Virus record (IMG/VR): IMGVR_UViG_3300029500_000006 | Location: 1-37,549 of that record | Length of the DNA stretch: 37,549 nt | Direction: 5' to 3' (one strand) | Source of the DNA: a virus | In this document: piece after piece, positions 4,684 to 22,996 of the stretch | Numbering within the stretch: position 1 is the stretch's first letter | How the letters are laid out: each line of letters begins with the position of its first letter | Position numbers and translations under genes: made by a program | Notes under the pieces: model-generated | Seen by the model: the letters and a program-made list of their open reading frames with translations, nothing else | Databases searched by the model: none | What the model was told of the DNA's origin: nothing

Positions 4684-4719
4684 TGGAACTCATAAGTTAT
4701 AATAGACTTATGGAACTCA
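4684..4719 (+). promoter_or_regulatory. Promoter/operator of the RHH gene
   Basis: TATAAT at 4698-4703 sits between inverted repeat CATAAGT / ACTTATG (4691-4697, 4706-4712) and direct repeats TGGAACTCA (4684-4692, 4711-4719). The -35 element is weak. Confidence 0.55.
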
Positions 4720-4735
4720 AAAGTGAGGTGATTAC

Positions 4736-4903
4736 ATGAGTCCGAGAACTGGAAGACCAACAGAGTGTAGAAAAGACCATGATGTAAAAGTAAGAATTGA
4801 TGATTCTACTCACAAAAAATTATTGCAATATTGCGAAGAACATGGAGTAACGAAAGCAGAAGCTATTCGACAAGGAATTCAGTTGGTATTACAGAAAAAG
4901 TAA
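4736..4903 (+). CDS. Ribbon-helix-helix (CopG/Arc-like) DNA-binding protein, 55 aa
   Basis: Hand-translated MSPRTGRPTECRKDHDVKVRIDDSTHKKLLQYCEEHGVTKAEAIRQGIQLVLQKK. It shows the basic N-terminal strand plus two-helix pattern of RHH proteins. RBS is gtgaggtg. Confidence 0.7.
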   Translation: MSPRTGRPTECRKDHDVKVRIDDSTHKKLLQYCEEHGVTKAEAIRQGIQLVLQKK

Positions 4904-4947: not shown

Positions 4948-4991
4948 AGAAGTTTCCTTCTGTAAATATTATAATGCAGATCGAAACTTCT
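4948..4991 (+). promoter_or_regulatory. Second promoter/operator candidate, upstream of the antirepressor operon
   Basis: The 9-bp inverted repeat AGAAGTTTC / GAAACTTCT flanks TATAAT (4970-4975). TTAGAA lies 18 nt upstream. Confidence 0.45.
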
Positions 4992-5025
4992 TTCAAGAAC
5001 CAAAAATTGAAAGGAGTTTTTTGAA

Positions 5026-5253
5026 ATGGAACAGATTGAAAAAATGTTTTATGACTGGACAGATGATCAGACTGATAGCTGTGAGTTAAGAACAATGTAT
5101 GTAAAATTAGAAGATGAACTTACAAAACAGATTGGTAAAGAAAAATATTCAAAGTTTGAAGACCTGATTATGGATTGTATACTTTGCGAGAGATTGGAAG
5201 CGTTTAAAGGCGGTTTCAAACAGGCAACAAGTTTATGGAAGGAATGCCTTTAG
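5026..5253 (+). CDS. Hypothetical 75-aa protein
   Basis: RBS gaaaggag. It lies between the RHH and antirepressor genes. Confidence 0.65.
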   Translation: MEQIEKMFYDWTDDQTDSCELRTMYVKLEDELTKQIGKEKYSKFEDLIMDCILCERLEAFKGGFKQATSLWKECL

Positions 5254-17290: not shown

Positions 17291-17566
17291 ATGACAGATT
17301 TAGGATTTTTAGCGGATTTTATGATTCCGGTAATCGTAGGGATTTGCCTGTGTGTTGGCTATGTGATCAAAAAATGGGTAAAAGACGTGGATAACAAATA
17401 CATTCCGACAGTCTGTGCACTGCTGGGAGTGATCCTTTCTATCTGGATCAGCGGATGGAATGTTTCCCCTGCTGTGATCTTGAGCGGATTATTCAGCGGT
17501 CTGGCATCCACAGGACTGCATCAGCTGTTCAAACAGTATATCGAAAAGAAAGAAGGTAATGAGTAA
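17291..17566 (+). CDS. Holin
   Basis: 91 aa with multiple TM segments and a charged C-terminus, directly upstream of the endolysin gene. Confidence 0.8.
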   Translation: MTDLGFLADFMIPVIVGICLCVGYVIKKWVKDVDNKYIPTVCALLGVILSIWISGWNVSPAVILSGLFSGLASTGLHQLFKQYIEKKEGNE

Positions 17567-18543
17567 TGGCATACAACACGAAGGAAATATGGGCTTCTGC
17601 AACCAACTATGGAGCGCATAGAGCATTGCACAGTATCAGATATATCGCAGTGCATTTTACCAGTAATGATGGAGACACAGCAGAAAATAACGGTAAATAT
17701 TTTCGAGGTGAAAACAGGAAGGCATCAGCGCACTACTTCGTGGATGATACGACTGTGGTGCATTCGGTTCCCGATGATCGTGTGGCATGGGCTGTTGGTG
17801 GAAGCAAGTACAACAACGGTGGCGGCCGGCTATATGGAATTGCCAAAAATGCAAACACGCTGAACGTGGAGCTGTGCGACACGATAAAAAATGGAACCGT
17901 AAAAGCAACAGAAGCGACGATCAATAACGCGCTGGATCTTATAAAAGGGCTGATGAGCAAATACAACATCCCGGTTGATCGTGTAATCCGACACTACGAC
18001 GTCAACGGAAAGCCATGCCCGTCCTACTGGGTGGATGATGCACTCTGGGAGCAGGAGTTTCACGGTAGACTAACGCAACCAAGTATTCCGGACGGACTTG
18101 CTGATCAGGCGGCAGCTGACGGAAACTGGTACTATTACAGAAACAATCTGGTGGCGGCAGATTACACCGGGCTTGCACAAAATGTGAACGGTTGGTGGTA
18201 TGTCCGGAACGGTGCGGTTGATTTCGGGGCAAATACCGTAGCTCAGAATGAGTATGGCTGGTGGAAGATAACCAACGGAGCTGTTGATTTTAACTACACA
18301 GGAATCGCCCAGAATGAAAATGGCTGGTGGAGAATTGAAAATGGAAAAGTAAACTTTGATTATACTGGTTTGGCAAAAAATGAAAATGGATGGTTCTACC
18401 TGCGGGAAGGCGCAGTAGACTTCAATTATACCGGACTGGCAAAAAATGATCAGGGCGTGTGGTTCGTACGCGATGGAAAAGTCGACTTTGATTATTCCGG
18501 AGAAGTGACCTGTAAGATTGTAAAAGGACAGGTCGCGGTATAA
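17566..18543 (+). CDS. Endolysin: N-acetylmuramoyl-L-alanine amidase plus cell-wall-binding repeats
   Basis: The N-terminal domain is amidase_2-like (IAVHFTSNDGDTAENN, AHYFVDD, LNVELC, VIRHYDVNGKPCP). The C-terminal half holds about six 20-aa repeats. Confidence 0.9.
   Translation: MAYNTKEIWASATNYGAHRALHSIRYIAVHFTSNDGDTAENNGKYFRGENRKASAHYFVDDTTVVHSVPDDRVAWAVGGSKYNNGGGRLYGIAKNANTLNVELCDTIKNGTVKATEATINNALDLIKGLMSKYNIPVDRVIRHYDVNGKPCPSYWVDDALWEQEFHGRLTQPSIPDGLADQAAADGNWYYYRNNLVAADYTGLAQNVNGWWYVRNGAVDFGANTVAQNEYGWWKITNGAVDFNYTGIAQNENGWWRIENGKVNFDYTGLAKNENGWFYLREGAVDFNYTGLAKNDQGVWFVRDGKVDFDYSGEVTCKIVKGQVAV
18118..18516 (+). repeat. About six tandem 20-aa cell-wall-binding repeats (coding)
   Basis: Repeated pattern NGWWY/K/R-x-NGAVDF-x-YTGLA/IAQN, read from the translation. 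Confidence 0.85.
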
Positions 18544-18805: not shown

Positions 18806-18833
18806 AAACGGTTAGTAACACGTTAGTAACAAA
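18806..18833. repeat. 28-nt repeat copy B, overlapping the integrase stop codon
   Basis: See copy A. The integrase stop (18823-18825) lies inside the second GTTAGTAACA unit. Confidence 0.85.
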
Positions 18834-19968
18834 TCTTTATCTTCTCAATTTCACTCCGGAGGTCTTCCAGAGTACGGTGTCCGTAGACATCGTTTGTAAC
18901 ATCTCCACCAAAGCTGTGGCCGAGCATTCGTTTCCGGTCGTTCTCCTTTACTTCATATTTTTCACATAAGGAAGAGAAGGTATGCCGGCAGTCATGCGGG
19001 GTATGCTTTTCACCTGTTGGAGCAATGGCAATGCCAAGGTCAGACAGGGCAGCGTTCATATCTTTCCGGAACTTCTGTGTTTGACAGCCAAGTATATTTT
19101 GGATTCCGTATTTCTCGCAACGATCTGCAACCATATTATAAATTCCGGAATAGATCGGTACAGTCCGGATCTTACTGGAACGTGTCTTAATACCGCCGTG
19201 AAAACTTTTATCGTCCAAATTGATTGCTATTTTGGAATATTCTGTAATCCGGAAACCGCTGTAACACATGATCAGCAGCATCTGGATTACATCATTTTCT
19301 TTATTTTCCCAGAGAATTTTCATCTCATCATCTGTAAACGGCACTCCGTGCTCGTCATCGTCCTCTGTATTGATTCGCACATGTACAGAGTAATCTTTAT
19401 CACACAATTCATAAATTTCAGCGTAAGCGTACATCTGATGCATCAGAGACACGATCAGTTCTTTGCTGGCATGTTTCAACGGGCAGGAATCAATGATGTT
19501 TTGCAGATCCTGATGGCGCAGATCGGCAAATACTTTATCGTGTATGGCAGAACAGTTTTTATATGCAGCCCGGGTGGAATTTTTTGACGATTCAGATAAC
19601 TTCCGGCTCTGATCACGCTCATATTTCCACTGATAGAATTCCTCATACACATCGGAAAAGGTCTTTTTGGCAGCTTCCAGCTTCTCGTCAGATGCTTTTG
19701 TAAGATTGTAGTCCGCCAGGATAGATTGGATCAGCTTGCTGCCGGAAATATCTGCAGTCGCGGCAACCGTTTTTTCGTACCCTGGATAATAAGTACCGGC
19801 TCGGTAAGCAGTCAACACCGCAAAGCCAACCATCCAGTCGGAAACATAACAGATTGCTTTTGGAGTTTTTGGGACACCGTTCAGCGTAAATTCCGTGGTA
19901 GGCGGATGGACTGCATAAGGATTGCGCCGCCCTTTGCCAAGATATTTGATGGAGCCGTTAGTAGCCAT
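18823..19968 (-). CDS. int: Tyrosine site-specific integrase
   Basis: 381 aa. The C-terminal catalytic region reads HTPHDCRHTFSSL ... MLGHS ... VYGHRT (R-H-R-Y type). Confidence 0.92.
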   Translation of the reverse strand: MATNGSIKYLGKGRRNPYAVHPPTTEFTLNGVPKTPKAICYVSDWMVGFAVLTAYRAGTYYPGYEKTVAATADISGSKLIQSILADYNLTKASDEKLEAAKKTFSDVYEEFYQWKYERDQSRKLSESSKNSTRAAYKNCSAIHDKVFADLRHQDLQNIIDSCPLKHASKELIVSLMHQMYAYAEIYELCDKDYSVHVRINTEDDDEHGVPFTDDEMKILWENKENDVIQMLLIMCYSGFRITEYSKIAINLDDKSFHGGIKTRSSKIRTVPIYSGIYNMVADRCEKYGIQNILGCQTQKFRKDMNAALSDLGIAIAPTGEKHTPHDCRHTFSSLCEKYEVKENDRKRMLGHSFGGDVTNDVYGHRTLEDLRSEIEKIKICY

Positions 19969-20002
19969 TAGGAATCTTTGGGTATTTTTTCCTTTTTGGC
20001 AT
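19958..20002 (-). CDS. 14-codon upstream ORF (MPKRKKYPKIPNGY) overlapping the int start; possibly the true int N-terminus displaced by a 1-nt frame change
   Basis: Strong RBS aaggtga 5-6 nt upstream. The annotated int ATG has no RBS. A +1 shift at TAC-TAA-C would join it to NGSIKYLGKG. Confidence 0.4.
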   Translation of the reverse strand: MPKRKKYPKIPNGY

Positions 20003-20077
20003 ATACATCACCTTCTTTCGTGAAAATGGTTAAAAATGGGTATAAAAATAACAGCCAGCAAAGAACGGGTGTTCCGC

Positions 20078-20106
20078 TTGCGAAGCTGTTCCGAAGATGA
20101 TACAAT
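20078..20106 (+). promoter_or_regulatory. Sigma-70-type promoter, TTGCGA-17-TACAAT with a TG extended -10
   Basis: TTGCGA at 20078-20083, a 17-nt spacer ending aTGa, and TACAAT at 20101-20106. Confidence 0.65.
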
Positions 20107-20112
20107 ATTTTT

Positions 20113-20222
20113 GGTCTGAAGCTGTAGCATCTCCGGAGGTGTTATAGTAAAATCGTCCTAGTTAGTGTCCGCTGTGCGGATGGGGCGTTTACCGGTTCCT
20201 GTTGCAGCAGGAGCCGGTTTTT
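20113..20222 (+). ncRNA. Candidate sRNA of about 110 nt, convergent with the NYN gene and antisense to NYN-to-int readthrough
   Basis: A promoter and an intrinsic terminator bracket about 110 nt that holds no ORF. It contains internal hairpins (TCCGC-tgt-GCGGA, CTCCGGAG). Confidence 0.45.
20191..20222 (+). terminator. Intrinsic terminator (+ strand)
   Basis: Stem CCGGTTCCTG / CAGGAGCCGG (one G-U pair), loop ttgcag, then ttttt. It abuts the NYN stop codon. Confidence 0.75.
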
Positions 20223-20915
20223 CTATTTATGAGTATGTGTGGTGTAAGATTTATTGCATGTACGAAGTCCGTCAATGTGTTCGAAGAGATCTGGTTTTAT
20301 TGGAGCACCTAATGGATCGAGAATAAAGTCAATTCCTTCTCTTCGTGCAAGTTTGGCAGCAGAAACAAAATCACTATCTCCAGATATAAGAACAATTTGA
20401 TCTACTTGATGCTTATATGCCATAGATGCAATATCTAAACCTATTTTCATATCTACACCTTTTTGATCGATTTCAAGACAGAAATCATTTTCTTGCAAAT
20501 CTGAAAACTGGATGCTTCCATTACATAGCTTCTTTACTGTTTGCGGGCGAATAGTATAATGAGCTTGTTCTTCAGCTAATTTTCCTAATCGAATAGCAAA
20601 TTTCCTTTTCTTTTTTAATTCGTTAAAAAAGCGTATAGTCCATTCATACAAGTCTGTTTTGCCTAAATCAACCTGTTGTTTTAAAAACGGGTGATAGATA
20701 CGTTTATTGGATGGAGCACAATCGTAGTAAAAGATTCTATACAAATCATTGTTTTCACCATGAGAATTTAAGTGACGTTTACAGTAGTTTGCCAATTCTA
20801 TGGCACGTTCTTCTGCTGTGGTATCACCAAAGACTGCTTGTGCGCGTCGTCTGTAAAAACCGCCATCAACCAAAATTGCTGTTTTCAAATGTTGCTGTGA
20901 ATGTCGTGAACTCAT
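20223..20915 (-). CDS. NYN-domain (LabA/PIN-like) putative ribonuclease
   Basis: 230 aa with TAILVDGGF near the N-terminus, QKGVDMKIGLDIASMAY, and QIVLISGDSDFVSAAKLARREGIDF. RBS ggagg. The DNA is AT-rich. Confidence 0.8.
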   Translation of the reverse strand: MSSRHSQQHLKTAILVDGGFYRRRAQAVFGDTTAEERAIELANYCKRHLNSHGENNDLYRIFYYDCAPSNKRIYHPFLKQQVDLGKTDLYEWTIRFFNELKKKRKFAIRLGKLAEEQAHYTIRPQTVKKLCNGSIQFSDLQENDFCLEIDQKGVDMKIGLDIASMAYKHQVDQIVLISGDSDFVSAAKLARREGIDFILDPLGAPIKPDLFEHIDGLRTCNKSYTTHTHK

Positions 20916-20936
20916 ATATGTAATCCTCCAGATACT

Positions 20937-20992
20937 AAAAAAGCTCTAGGGTTCGGTCATTCCCATATACTGAGAGACGTACAACCTAGAGC
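20937..20992 (-). terminator. Terminator-like hairpin plus U6 in the 5' leader of the NYN gene
   Basis: The minus-strand RNA folds as GCUCUAGG ... CCUAGAGC followed by UUUUUU, about 20 nt upstream of the RBS. Confidence 0.55.
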
Positions 20993-21024
20993 ACTATTAA
21001 CATGTAACCTCTGCTACATGTATT

Positions 21025-21053
21025 ATAATATATGCAATAAGTTGAAAAATCAA
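21025..21053 (-). promoter_or_regulatory. Promoter of the NYN unit, TTGATT-17-TATTAT (minus strand)
   Basis: Read from the reverse complement: -35 at 21053-21048 and -10 at 21030-21025. Confidence 0.5.
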
Positions 21054-21126
21054 TACATATCGTTAAAAATTAACAGAAATTTTACAAAATAAACACAAAT
21101 AGAGTTATTTGCAAGGTTTTATTGCT

Positions 21127-21151
21127 TCCCCTGCCCACATGGAGCAGGGGA
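21127..21151 (-). terminator. GC-rich hairpin downstream of the lipoprotein gene
   Basis: TCCCCTGC / GCAGGGGA with a 9-nt loop. There is no clear U-tail on either strand. Confidence 0.4.
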
Positions 21152-21156
21152 GTGAA

Positions 21157-21798
21157 TTATTCTGAATCACTTGCCAGATCTGAAGAATCAGAAGAGGAAA
21201 TCACTTCTCCAGAATCTGCATTTACAAAGTCAACATGTACATTGTCAATAGATGTTCCATTGAATGCATAGTACATTCCAGACATCATATAAAGGCTCAT
21301 AACAGCCACTGTTTCACTCAAATCCGGTTCGGAATTAGTGGTTGTAATTGTGTAGCTGGTAAAATCTGAATTGGCGGTAACATCGGTAATGTTTGGATAG
21401 TCCTCAGATCCGACCATTTCTGAAAGGAAGCTGTTGATGTTGTCAGCACATTTTTCCATGAGCTGTTTGTGTTGCTTTTTAGTCATTACATAAGTTGCGC
21501 TGCCATCCTCGTTGAGTGTGACTTTATATCCACTTTCTTTGGCAGAAGCGTCAAGTTCTTCCTGTGTTGTTTCTCCGACATATTCAGCAGGAACAGTCAC
21601 GGTAACGTCAAACACACCTTTATCAACATCGACATCACCAATGGAAGAAATGTCAGATGCTTCATCGGAAGCAGATGTATCTTCCACTTGCTTTACAGAT
21701 TCTTCTTTTGGTGCGGATGAATTCTGTTGAGCAGCAGATCCGCAACCAGAAAATAAAAATGTTCCAACTAACAACAGTGCTACAATTTTTCTTTTCAT
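21157..21798 (-). CDS. Secreted lipoprotein, 213 aa
   Basis: Signal peptide MKRKIVALLLVGTFLFSGC with a lipobox, and RBS aggaga. The start is trimmed from the track ORF (21942) to ATG 21798. Confidence 0.8.
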   Translation of the reverse strand: MKRKIVALLLVGTFLFSGCGSAAQQNSSAPKEESVKQVEDTSASDEASDISSIGDVDVDKGVFDVTVTVPAEYVGETTQEELDASAKESGYKVTLNEDGSATYVMTKKQHKQLMEKCADNINSFLSEMVGSEDYPNITDVTANSDFTSYTITTTNSEPDLSETVAVMSLYMMSGMYYAFNGTSIDNVHVDFVNADSGEVISSSDSSDLASDSE

Positions 21799-21823
21799 AA
21801 CAATTCTCCTATGTATTAAAAAA

Positions 21824-22198
21824 TTACAGAATAAACTGTGAAATAGTTCTTCCAATTTCAACAATATTGCTGGATCCAGTAAATTCAAATTTAACTTTTC
21901 CAAGACTGCTGAAATAGAGTTCCAACTCGCTATCAAGATCAATCACACCGGCTGTCTCAATAGAAAATGCCTGGATCTTTGAATATGGAAGCGTAGTAAA
22001 ATCTTTTTTCTTTCCGGTCATGCCCTGAACATTGACAGCAATTACTCTCTTGTTTGTAAAGATAACAAAATCTCTGATTGCCTGGTACTCACCGAGAAAT
22101 TCCTCGCCAGGGACAAAAAGTGGCTTGATTAGGCTTTCATTGTGGAATTTTTTTGTGTCTTTCAGCTTGATAAAGCTTCCGTTTTTGAAATCAATCAT
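21824..22198 (-). CDS. Bacterial PH-domain protein (YokE-like)
   Basis: 124 aa with IFTNKRVIAVNVQGMTGKKKDFTTLPYSKIQAFSIET. RBS aaggag. Confidence 0.7.
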   Translation of the reverse strand: MIDFKNGSFIKLKDTKKFHNESLIKPLFVPGEEFLGEYQAIRDFVIFTNKRVIAVNVQGMTGKKKDFTTLPYSKIQAFSIETAGVIDLDSELELYFSSLGKVKFEFTGSSNIVEIGRTISQFIL

Positions 22199-22360: not shown

Positions 22361-22996
22361 TTATAGCTTTCTGCGAAGCTCCACAACTTTTCCCAGAATC
22401 TTCACAGGTTTTTCTGCTACATCTTGATTAGAGAAGTACATTGGATCATAAGATGGGTTATTTGAAATCAGTTCAATACCATCTTTATATTTCCGAAGTC
22501 TCTTGCATGTTGCGTCATTTCCATTGACAGTAGCAATAACGGTATCACCATTTTCGGCATCTTCCTGGCATCGAATGATTACTATGTCGCCATCACAGAT
22601 ATTTGGAACCATGGAATTCCCTTTTATAATCAAACCAAAGTATTCGCCAGTTTTTGCCATATCCTCAGAGATTTCTTCTGTATCAACAATATCTTCGATC
22701 ATTTCAATCGGTATGCCAGCAGCTACACGACCGTATATATTTATAGTAACTCCTTTTTTATGCACCTGAGGAATGTTGTTGCGTTCTTCAACTAAATCGG
22801 CTTTTGTAATGCCAAAATAATTTGCCATGAGTTCAATTTTATCAATACGTGGATATGAGTTGCCTTTGACCCAGTCTGTAAAAGTTGTGTATTTTACTCC
22901 AAGAGCATCACACATATCATTTCTAGTTTTTTGATGTTTATCCATATAATACAGAATATTTTTTGCCATTATTTCTTTATTTCCAAGACTACTCAT
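22361..22996 (-). CDS. CI/LexA-like repressor: XRE HTH plus S24 autopeptidase
   Basis: The N-terminal HTH reads QKTRNDMCDALGVKYTTFTDWVKGNSYP. The C-terminal part carries GNSMVP (Ser) and ATCKRL (Lys). RBS agaggtga. Confidence 0.9.
   Translation of the reverse strand: MSSLGNKEIMAKNILYYMDKHQKTRNDMCDALGVKYTTFTDWVKGNSYPRIDKIELMANYFGITKADLVEERNNIPQVHKKGVTINIYGRVAAGIPIEMIEDIVDTEEISEDMAKTGEYFGLIIKGNSMVPNICDGDIVIIRCQEDAENGDTVIATVNGNDATCKRLRKYKDGIELISNNPSYDPMYFSNQDVAEKPVKILGKVVELRRKL

Follow-up and report, generated by a model that had tools for sequence, protein, structure and literature searches.

A NYN Gene with a Divergent TEG147-Class Leader and an Integrase-Linked Small RNA as Two Probably Independent Modules of a Lachnospiraceae Prophage

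Organization of the Region

The stretch analyzed here, called the window, is the whole of the 37,549-nt IMG/VR virus record IMGVR_UViG_3300029500_000006, a temperate siphovirus-type genome or prophage of Lachnospiraceae (Eubacterium ramulus-type), whose nearest named phages have Ruminococcus gnavus, Dorea and Roseburia as hosts. The region under study (20078-21053, both strands) lies beside the integrase gene (int) and holds two convergent units. Module 1 (20223-21053, minus strand) is a self-contained moron made up of a promoter, a 5′ hairpin, a 60-nt structured leader, a Shine-Dalgarno (SD) sequence and a gene for a NYN-family protein. Module 2 (about 20040-20222, plus strand) consists of a promoter, a hairpin RNA and a terminator; it is apparently undescribed, and it accompanies integrases and not the nuclease. 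By comparative criteria both RNAs are real, and we infer their mechanisms from sequence.

The NYN Protein

The coding sequence (CDS) at 20223-20915 on the minus strand begins at ATG 20915 behind the SD sequence GGAGG (20925-20929), ends with the stop codon at 20223-20225 and encodes a NYN/LabA-type protein of 230 aa. The motifs ILVDGGF, KGVDMKIGLD and LISGDSDF, by which a preceding sequence-only reading of the region had recognized a NYN/LabA protein, are present in its translation, and residues 136-196 matched the Pfam NYN model PF01936 with 41.3 bits (cut-off 24.2; E=2.8e-10). The protein also matched phrog_5783, a family annotated 'unknown function', over its full length (E=5.8e-85), and five aspartates (D17, D155, D161, D180 and D182) are invariant across 33 homologues that are 52-89% identical to it. 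The AlphaFold2 model (pLDDT 88.7) predicts a compact α/β fold whose best structure matches in BFVD are NYN/LabA-like, two of the top three being so named (probability 1.0, TM 0.38-0.51). A PDB sequence search returned 2qip as the sole match (E=0.66), the NCBIfam search gave marginal NYN-motif matches only, and a protein of Eubacterium ramulus is 100% identical to the window protein.

In comparison with Pfam NYN PF01936/LabA-like (DUF88) proteins, the shared features are the above-cut-off match of the hidden Markov model, the invariant acidic residues and the NYN/LabA-like matches in BFVD, whereas a large insertion (about residues 25-135) between the first strand and the Pfam-matched core sets the window protein apart, and none of the solved structures is close to it. 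Judged by profile and conserved residues, the protein is a NYN-family protein, and we regard this assignment as sound.

The Promoter and Leader of the NYN Gene

A candidate sigma-70-type promoter of the NYN gene, TTGATT-17-TATTAT, was located by consensus scan at 21025-21053 on the minus strand, where 9/12 positions match. Lone consensus matches are not above chance (6 sites in the scan against 4.8±2.0 in shuffles), and TTGACA/TATAAT-like boxes recur at a matching distance upstream of the leader in homologous loci, including that of Staphylococcus aureus (L212). The sequence-only reading had placed this promoter in front of the gene and taken the gene for a unit of its own, and such a unit, running from promoter to stop codon, is borne out. 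The predicted fold of the NYN mRNA opens with a 5′-terminal hairpin, CAUGUAGC-AGAG-GUUACAUG (21001-21020, minus strand), which is followed by a conserved GUUAAUA. Most Clostridia-type homologues have a 5′ hairpin of different sequence at the equivalent place, and it is absent in Staphylococcus.

The structured leader occupies 20930-21000 on the minus strand and scores 70.4 bits (E=4.8e-15) with our covariance model R1. Its elements follow in the order P1 5′ arm (20985-20992), UGUA, P2, P3 hairpin, P2′, GAA, P1 3′ arm (20943-20950) and a run of six U (20937-20942), so that the outer helix P1 together with the U-run is predicted to form an intrinsic terminator ending 7 nt before the SD sequence of the NYN gene. 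This is the hairpin and U6 run that had been noticed ahead of the SD sequence from the window alone, where the single-sequence fold of the leader is unremarkable (z=-1.8).

The homologous loci are far more informative. The set comprised 80 viral contigs whose NYN homologues are 58-87% identical, together with loci from phages and genomes, and the leader element was found upstream of 86 of the 87 NYN homologues. An alignment of 39 distinct copies, in which 14 base pairs were tested, has 94.8% of its cells paired and contains 123 cells with compensatory double changes against 30.9±5.5 in shuffles, with 0/500 shuffles reaching 123; when partner columns were slid as a control, pairing fell to 21-59%. 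A joint alignment of the phage and staphylococcal copies yields one structure with compensatory changes in 13 of the 14 pairs. The covariation of hairpins in homologues, which the sequence-only reading had named as a check, is hence strong for the leader. The alignment consensus reads P1 (8 bp), (A/U)GUA, P2, P3 (CCC-loop-GGG with a near-invariant AUA), P2′, GAA, P1′ and the U-run; the GUA/GAA internal loop is of the sarcin-ricin type, the AUA hairpin loop is conserved, and the SD sequence and start codon stand about 10-25 nt past the leader in the homologous loci. Comparison, and not the single-sequence fold or a consensus match, is the decisive evidence for the predicted leader.

The coupling of leader and gene is equally strict in genome scans. 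A scan of 906 kb of related phage DNA with model R1 found only two copies, each directly upstream of NYN, and further R1 matches upstream of NYN were obtained from Phascolarctobacterium, Streptococcus azizii, S. aureus and an Actinomycetes-type lineage. Throughout Clostridia, Bacilli, Negativicutes and the Actinomycetes-type lineage, the gene and its leader are an inseparable pair. The possibility that the leader is merely the terminator of the upstream gene was considered and rejected, because the NYN promoter separates that gene from the leader and the leader travels with NYN regardless.

Relationship with TEG147

The Rfam family TEG147 (RF03535) matched the window leader with 17 bits only (E=4.8), the gathering score being 56.1, while full-length TEG147 matches of 35-36 bits were obtained on the relatives L002, L109 and L051 and staphylococcal copies score 72-87 bits. 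A scan of GTDB genomes with the TEG147 consensus revealed four staphylococcal loci. Two of them, from S. borealis and S. intermedius, carry TEG147 directly upstream of a NYN homologue, and in S. aureus L212 a TEG147 copy of 86.6 bits ends 18 nt before the start codon of an intact NYN gene, with ssl genes adjoining. The NYN homologues that follow TEG147 in these three species share 55-61% identity with the window protein. In S. schweitzeri (L211) and S. simulans (L209), TEG147 is kept and NYN is reduced to a short remnant, VAILIYGEF*. Loss of NYN behind a retained TEG147 may explain why the RNA was catalogued as a stand-alone small RNA.

In the literature, S. aureus Teg147 (sRNA85/srn_0960) is an expressed RNA of 56-60 nt (SRD 386298-386353; Liu et al.; PMC5826253) and a 'bona fide sRNA' of a genomic island (PMC5826253, PMC3053349), and its family contains a sarcin-ricin motif (PMC13085918). 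It has been catalogued as an orphan small RNA or as a cis-regulatory element, Rfam RF03535 filing it under 'Cis-reg', and it is not tied to any gene in PMC5826253, PMC3053349 or PMC7779021.

The window leader shares with TEG147 the P1, P2 and P3 helices, the GUA/GAA internal loop and the U-run, the C-rich/G-rich P3 with its AUA loop, and the position directly upstream of a NYN homologue; it differs in its score of 17 bits, its residence in a Clostridia prophage and its extra 5′ hairpin. Since the window score is weak, the relatives reach 35-36 bits, the structure is shared and staphylococcal copies stand in the same NYN context, the leader is best classed, on these comparisons, as a divergent member of the TEG147 structural class and not as a member by Rfam's own threshold.

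Possible Functions of the Leader

Because the leader ends in a conserved terminator hairpin, NYN expression plausibly depends on read-through, as had been proposed from the window alone, and the predicted termination at the U-run fits the annotated 56-60 nt extent of S. aureus Teg147. Most transcripts would then stop at the leader and give a stable short RNA with little NYN mRNA. The NYN protein itself would be the likely partner of the leader RNA, through feedback binding, through cleavage or through sequestration similar to that by a type III antitoxin, and this partnership would keep the level of a possibly harmful nuclease down until it is triggered, for example by an infecting phage. We prefer to read the leader as an attenuator specific to the NYN nuclease and probably recognized by NYN. 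Close known parallels are the autoregulated leaders of RNA-binding proteins and RNases, such as ribosomal-protein leaders and the 5′ untranslated regions (UTRs) of rnc and rne. Shared with these are a structured 5′ leader specific to one gene family, a loop of the protein-binding type and a terminator, whereas binding of the leader by NYN is putative here and an alternative structure was not found.

The main alternative to the attenuator, and the more novel one, is that the leader acts in trans as the RNA antitoxin of a type III-like system, in which the terminated leader neutralizes NYN and a loss of transcription during infection frees the nuclease and brings about abortive infection. Type III toxin-antitoxin loci consist of a promoter, a non-coding RNA, a palindromic terminator and a toxin gene, the ratio of RNA to protein being presumably governed by the terminator (PMC3401426). 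The leader and NYN gene agree with ToxIN, CptIN and TenpIN in having promoter, RNA, palindromic terminator and an RNase-type gene in this order, which covers two of the criteria for a type III locus (PMC3401426). The strict coupling of RNA and gene, the leader-only remnants beside the near absence of NYN without a leader, the location of the cassette in a hotspot of defense and toxin-antitoxin genes, and the listing of the homologous S. aureus leader as a stable short RNA (PMC5826253) all speak in the same direction. On the other side, no tandem or direct repeats were detected at 20916-21053, so that the leader is a single structured unit where type III RNAs are tandem repeat arrays; the protein is NYN/PIN-like and lacks the AbiQ-like ToxN/CptN/TenpN fold, with Pfam and PADLOC giving NYN-type matches only; a purely cis-acting element would equally leave leader remnants; and toxicity, RNA-protein binding and neutralization by NYN and leader are putative. 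A literature search for a link between NYN and toxin-antitoxin systems found nothing. We therefore hold the antitoxin model to be tentative and rather unlikely. The resemblance to type III designs that the sequence-only reading had suggested stands for the layout of the leader RNA and falls for the convergent RNA.

A leader that senses a small molecule as a riboswitch, or another ligand independently of the NYN protein, could account for the conserved unpaired GUA, GAA and AUA loop of this compact, terminator-ending fold. The element, though, precedes the genes of a single protein family only, its core is very small and a conserved alternative structure did not emerge, which makes this explanation very unlikely. 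A loop of the sarcin-ricin type is, besides, typically a protein-binding motif.

The Integrase-Linked Small RNA

Module 2 starts from a near-invariant extended -10 promoter, TTGCGA-17-TGaTACAAT, located by consensus scan at 20078-20106 on the plus strand and designated the TGATACAAT promoter. The RNA that would arise from it (20113-20222, plus strand; 5′ end estimated) is predicted to fold into three hairpins, namely hairpin 1 (20121-20148), hairpin 2 (20154-20187) and, at 20191-20218, a terminator hairpin which, with its U-run, abuts the NYN stop codon. The fold of this RNA of about 110 nt reaches -49.3 kcal/mol (z=-5.0), and the promoter, RNA and abutting terminator, all described earlier from the window alone, were recovered at the same coordinates.

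At least 120 IMG/VR contigs carry, without a change, the 19-mer CCGAAGATGATACAATATT that surrounds the -10 box. The small RNA set built on it covers at least 120 viral contigs, with 110 unique versions among the matches listed, to which the following counts refer. The RNA is 61-157 nt long and consists of a 5′ single strand, a hairpin that is usually UUCG-capped (CCGG in hairpin 1 of the window), zero to three more hairpins and a terminator, which ends 105 of the 110 unique versions. Pairing in hairpin 1 amounts to 86.8% against 64.4±1.5% in shuffles, so that the covariation check extends to this RNA as well, and the consensus fold from RNAalifold contains both hairpin 1 and the terminator, 10 of 12 pairs showing compensatory changes. 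The middle hairpins often have a UUGGCG-type loop like that of the terminator. The terminator loop itself reads either TTGGCG or its exact inverse, CGCCAA, between identical stems (L010, L013, L020, L029, L049 and L108 against L003, L096 and others), and this flip is the chief difference between L029 and L096; the flip suggests loop inversion of a quasi-palindrome.

The small RNA is divergent from the integrase start in all loci among the matches listed, usually at a distance of 65-90 nt. The neighboring integrases fall into at least nine unrelated clusters and include large serine recombinases as well as tyrosine integrases, while the neighbors on the cargo side form 48 clusters, nearly all convergent, in the 117 loci with a neighboring open reading frame (ORF) among the matches listed. 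NYN is one of these cargo clusters, with four of the 117 loci. By tblastn, NYN was detected in five of the about 120 RNA-carrying contigs listed, plus the window, and conversely the small RNA unit occurs in only 8-9 of about 80 NYN loci (about 10%). The stretch upstream of int is also conserved in phages, those of R. gnavus and Roseburia among them, that have a neighboring gene other than NYN.

These distributions bear on the sequence-only reading of the whole region, which took the NYN gene, its leader and the convergent RNA for one gated-nuclease system, with the convergent RNA as antitoxin or regulator of NYN. In its support, the window has the small RNA terminator directly against the stop codon of NYN, and the NYN cassette keeps an identical small RNA terminator when it is joined to another integrase. 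The RNA nevertheless accompanies 48 cargo clusters among the matches listed, is absent from about 90% of NYN loci and has no overlap with the NYN CDS. Because only about 10% of NYN loci carry it, the small RNA is not the NYN antitoxin, and the convergent unit no longer stands as a part of the NYN cassette. A type I toxin-antitoxin design, which had also been proposed, fails too, since the convergent RNA stops 4 nt before reaching the stop codon of NYN and the NYN protein, with 230 aa and a compact α/β fold, is not a small hydrophobic toxin. We consider the one-system model scarcely credible.

A search of Rfam 15 with the integrase-linked RNA gave no match at gathering score in the window and chance-level matches only at E up to 10; on L003 and L004 the best match was L10_leader (E=4). 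BsrG, a family of type I toxin RNAs, gave a weak match in the related phage locus L109 at 4977-5106 on the plus strand (30 bits, E=0.002, below gathering score). Literature searches for an integrase-adjacent RNA in Lachnospiraceae or R. gnavus phages returned nothing relevant.

The Integrase and the Control Region

The tyrosine integrase (18823-20002, minus strand; Pfam Phage_integrase, phrog_1) comprises an ORF at 18823-19968 and a conserved start with an SD sequence at 20002. In comparison with int of the related phage phiRgPS_6, the conserved start at 20002 is out of frame by +1 after codon 14, owing to a 1-nt insertion. At 19960-20005 on the minus strand, the frame from ATG 20002 with its SD sequence reads MPKRKKYPKIPNGY and then meets a stop codon, and the long ORF resumes at +1 from ATG 19968, which has no SD sequence. 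The insertion is not a one-off sequencing error, because it recurs in L219, an independent metagenome contig with 100% identity over 2333 nt. Decay of int, use of an internal start or programmed frameshifting may underlie the frame change.

Between the divergent int and small RNA promoters lies a conserved control region (20040-20077), in which GGTAYAAAAATAACAGCC and a GAAC-N4-GTTC palindrome are conserved. Its first part, GTATAAAAATAACAGCCAGC (20040-20059), contains in the minus-strand reading TGtTATTTT, a candidate extended -10 box for int, and the palindrome (20063-20074) adjoins the -35 box of the small RNA promoter and is a candidate operator. The block, palindrome included, is conserved across loci with unrelated integrases (L003-L126). 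The promoter and operator roles assigned to this region are putative.

Possible Functions of the Integrase-Linked RNA

Transcription of the small RNA gene, or the RNA itself, would counter read-through that comes from lysogeny and cargo genes and enters int, or would tune int in some other way, with the palindrome between the int and small RNA promoters as a possible operator. The small RNA probably has its effect on the control of the integrase or on such read-through, and for the convergent RNA a role in int expression or in NYN-to-int read-through, which had been mentioned earlier as an alternative, appears more plausible than a role in the NYN cassette. Phage lambda offers a parallel in OOP RNA, which is short, strongly promoted and terminated, and in int retroregulation, by which int is controlled from read-through transcripts. 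Shared are the short promoted and terminated RNA convergent with transcription of the lysogeny region and the int read-through context; the RNA described here differs in that it overlaps no CDS, is divergent from int, stands beside both serine and tyrosine integrases and is unrelated to the lambda RNA in sequence, and any likeness in mechanism would be one of analogy.

A competing explanation is that the RNA acts in trans on host or phage targets, or that it has no function as an RNA and the promoter and terminator are module boundaries that favor recombination. In its favor, the 5′ single strand varies whereas the hairpins are kept, the terminator loop is seen in either orientation, and a recombination joint lies inside the small RNA gene. 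The joint is seen at L220-L222 (about 4694-4875), where a serine integrase of 528 aa adjoins the NYN protein and leader in identical form, in prophages beside a Mn-catalase gene and infC-rpmI-rplT; compared with window positions 20113-20222, the small RNA promoter and terminator are common and hairpin 1 and the RNA body are different. Because an identical NYN cassette is joined to a different RNA body, the small RNA gene is also a recombination joint between modules. Against it, the compensatory changes in hairpin 1 point to selection acting on the fold of the RNA, the position by the int start is fixed and the palindrome conserved, and no target was found in the test of pairing with the int start. 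This explanation is accordingly possible, at less than even odds.

Weighing the Two-Module Reading

Taken together, we read the region as two independent modules of a prophage, a NYN moron with its own leader and a small RNA gene belonging to the integrase module, with a probability of roughly 0.6. Several observations weigh against this reading or parts of it. In the profile and fold check proposed for the NYN protein, Pfam and the aspartates speak for NYN; on the fold, the best BFVD matches are NYN/LabA-like, and Foldseek against the PDB with the NYN model gave only generic α/β Rossmann-like folds (TM 0.2-0.4). The PADLOC-DB 2.0 matches were marginal and local (HEC-09, E=1.4e-4; NYN model, E=3e-4), both covering the GVD...SGDSDF motif only, and ribonuclease activity, RNA binding and toxicity of the family are putative. 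An alternative antiterminator fold, or pairing of the 5′ hairpin with P1, was sought among the homologous leaders and no recurring alternative pairing was found; termination at the leader, read-through and both RNAs of the window are predictions. Trans pairing of the small RNA with the int translation start of its own phage was rejected for lack of signal, the duplex energies being -15.0 kcal/mol for self against -14.6±3.3 kcal/mol for cross pairs, with phage-specific complementarity absent. The missing overlap with the NYN CDS counts here as well, and the small RNA terminator, checked as a possible bidirectional terminator for the cargo gene, lacks a U-tract when read on the minus strand. The conserved promoter and terminator of the small RNA may also partly reflect recombination joints between modules.

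Two bolder versions of the two-module reading go further. In one, leader and NYN would constitute a new and widespread ribonucleoprotein system for toxin-antitoxin action or abortive infection in Gram-positive prophages and genomic islands; in the other, the integrase-linked RNA would be a new regulatory class that acts on int expression or lysogeny directionality with any integrase type in gut Lachnospiraceae phages. We regard them as speculative and more probably wrong than right.

Genomic Context and Cargo Slot

The window contains, around the two modules, an amidase endolysin (17566-18543, plus strand), the integrase ORF, a lipoprotein-like ORF (21157-21942, minus strand), a bPH protein (21824-22198, minus strand), a LexA/S24-type repressor (22361-22996, minus strand) and rightward early genes beyond 23000 (plus strand). 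Since the attP of phiRgPS_6 sits between lysin and int (PMC10072058), the two modules lie on the inner side of int. The ORF at 21157-21942 has a lipobox after an internal Met (MKRKIVALLLVGTFLFSGCGS) and is for this reason probably a lipoprotein, that is, cargo of the superinfection-exclusion type; a GC hairpin with no U-run was noted past its stop codon at 21121-21150.

NYN usually stands immediately upstream of the integrase at the prophage end. In related phages (L003-L126), the slot between the integrase-linked small RNA and the repressor is the place of the 48 cargo clusters among the matches listed, including Abi_2, SIR2_2, ThsB_TIR, PemK/MazF, HicB, PBECR2/3 nucleases and restriction-type domains, along with Uma2, HSDR_N, HNH, DUF4041+T5orf172 and several lipoproteins. 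The NYN moron thereby appears as one occupant of an integrase-proximal cargo hotspot, a context that supports a role in conflict or defense.

Biological Implications

The orphan Rfam family TEG147 gains a consistent genetic partner in the NYN nuclease family phrog_5783, itself annotated as of unknown function, and the leader-NYN pair is conserved from staphylococcal genomic islands to prophages of gut Clostridia, where it lies in a hotspot of defense genes. If true, a toxin-antitoxin reading of this pair would give the orphan S. aureus Teg147 a function, and the system would be type III-like in layout with a single structured RNA and a PIN-like toxin. The pair could turn out to be an RNA-controlled nuclease system of a new kind. 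The integrase-linked RNA is abundant at the boundary between integrase and cargo in many temperate phages of the human gut, and it may explain how these phages insulate or tune int expression. Its conserved promoter sequence marks cargo hotspots and is a possible anchor for the mining of defense genes.

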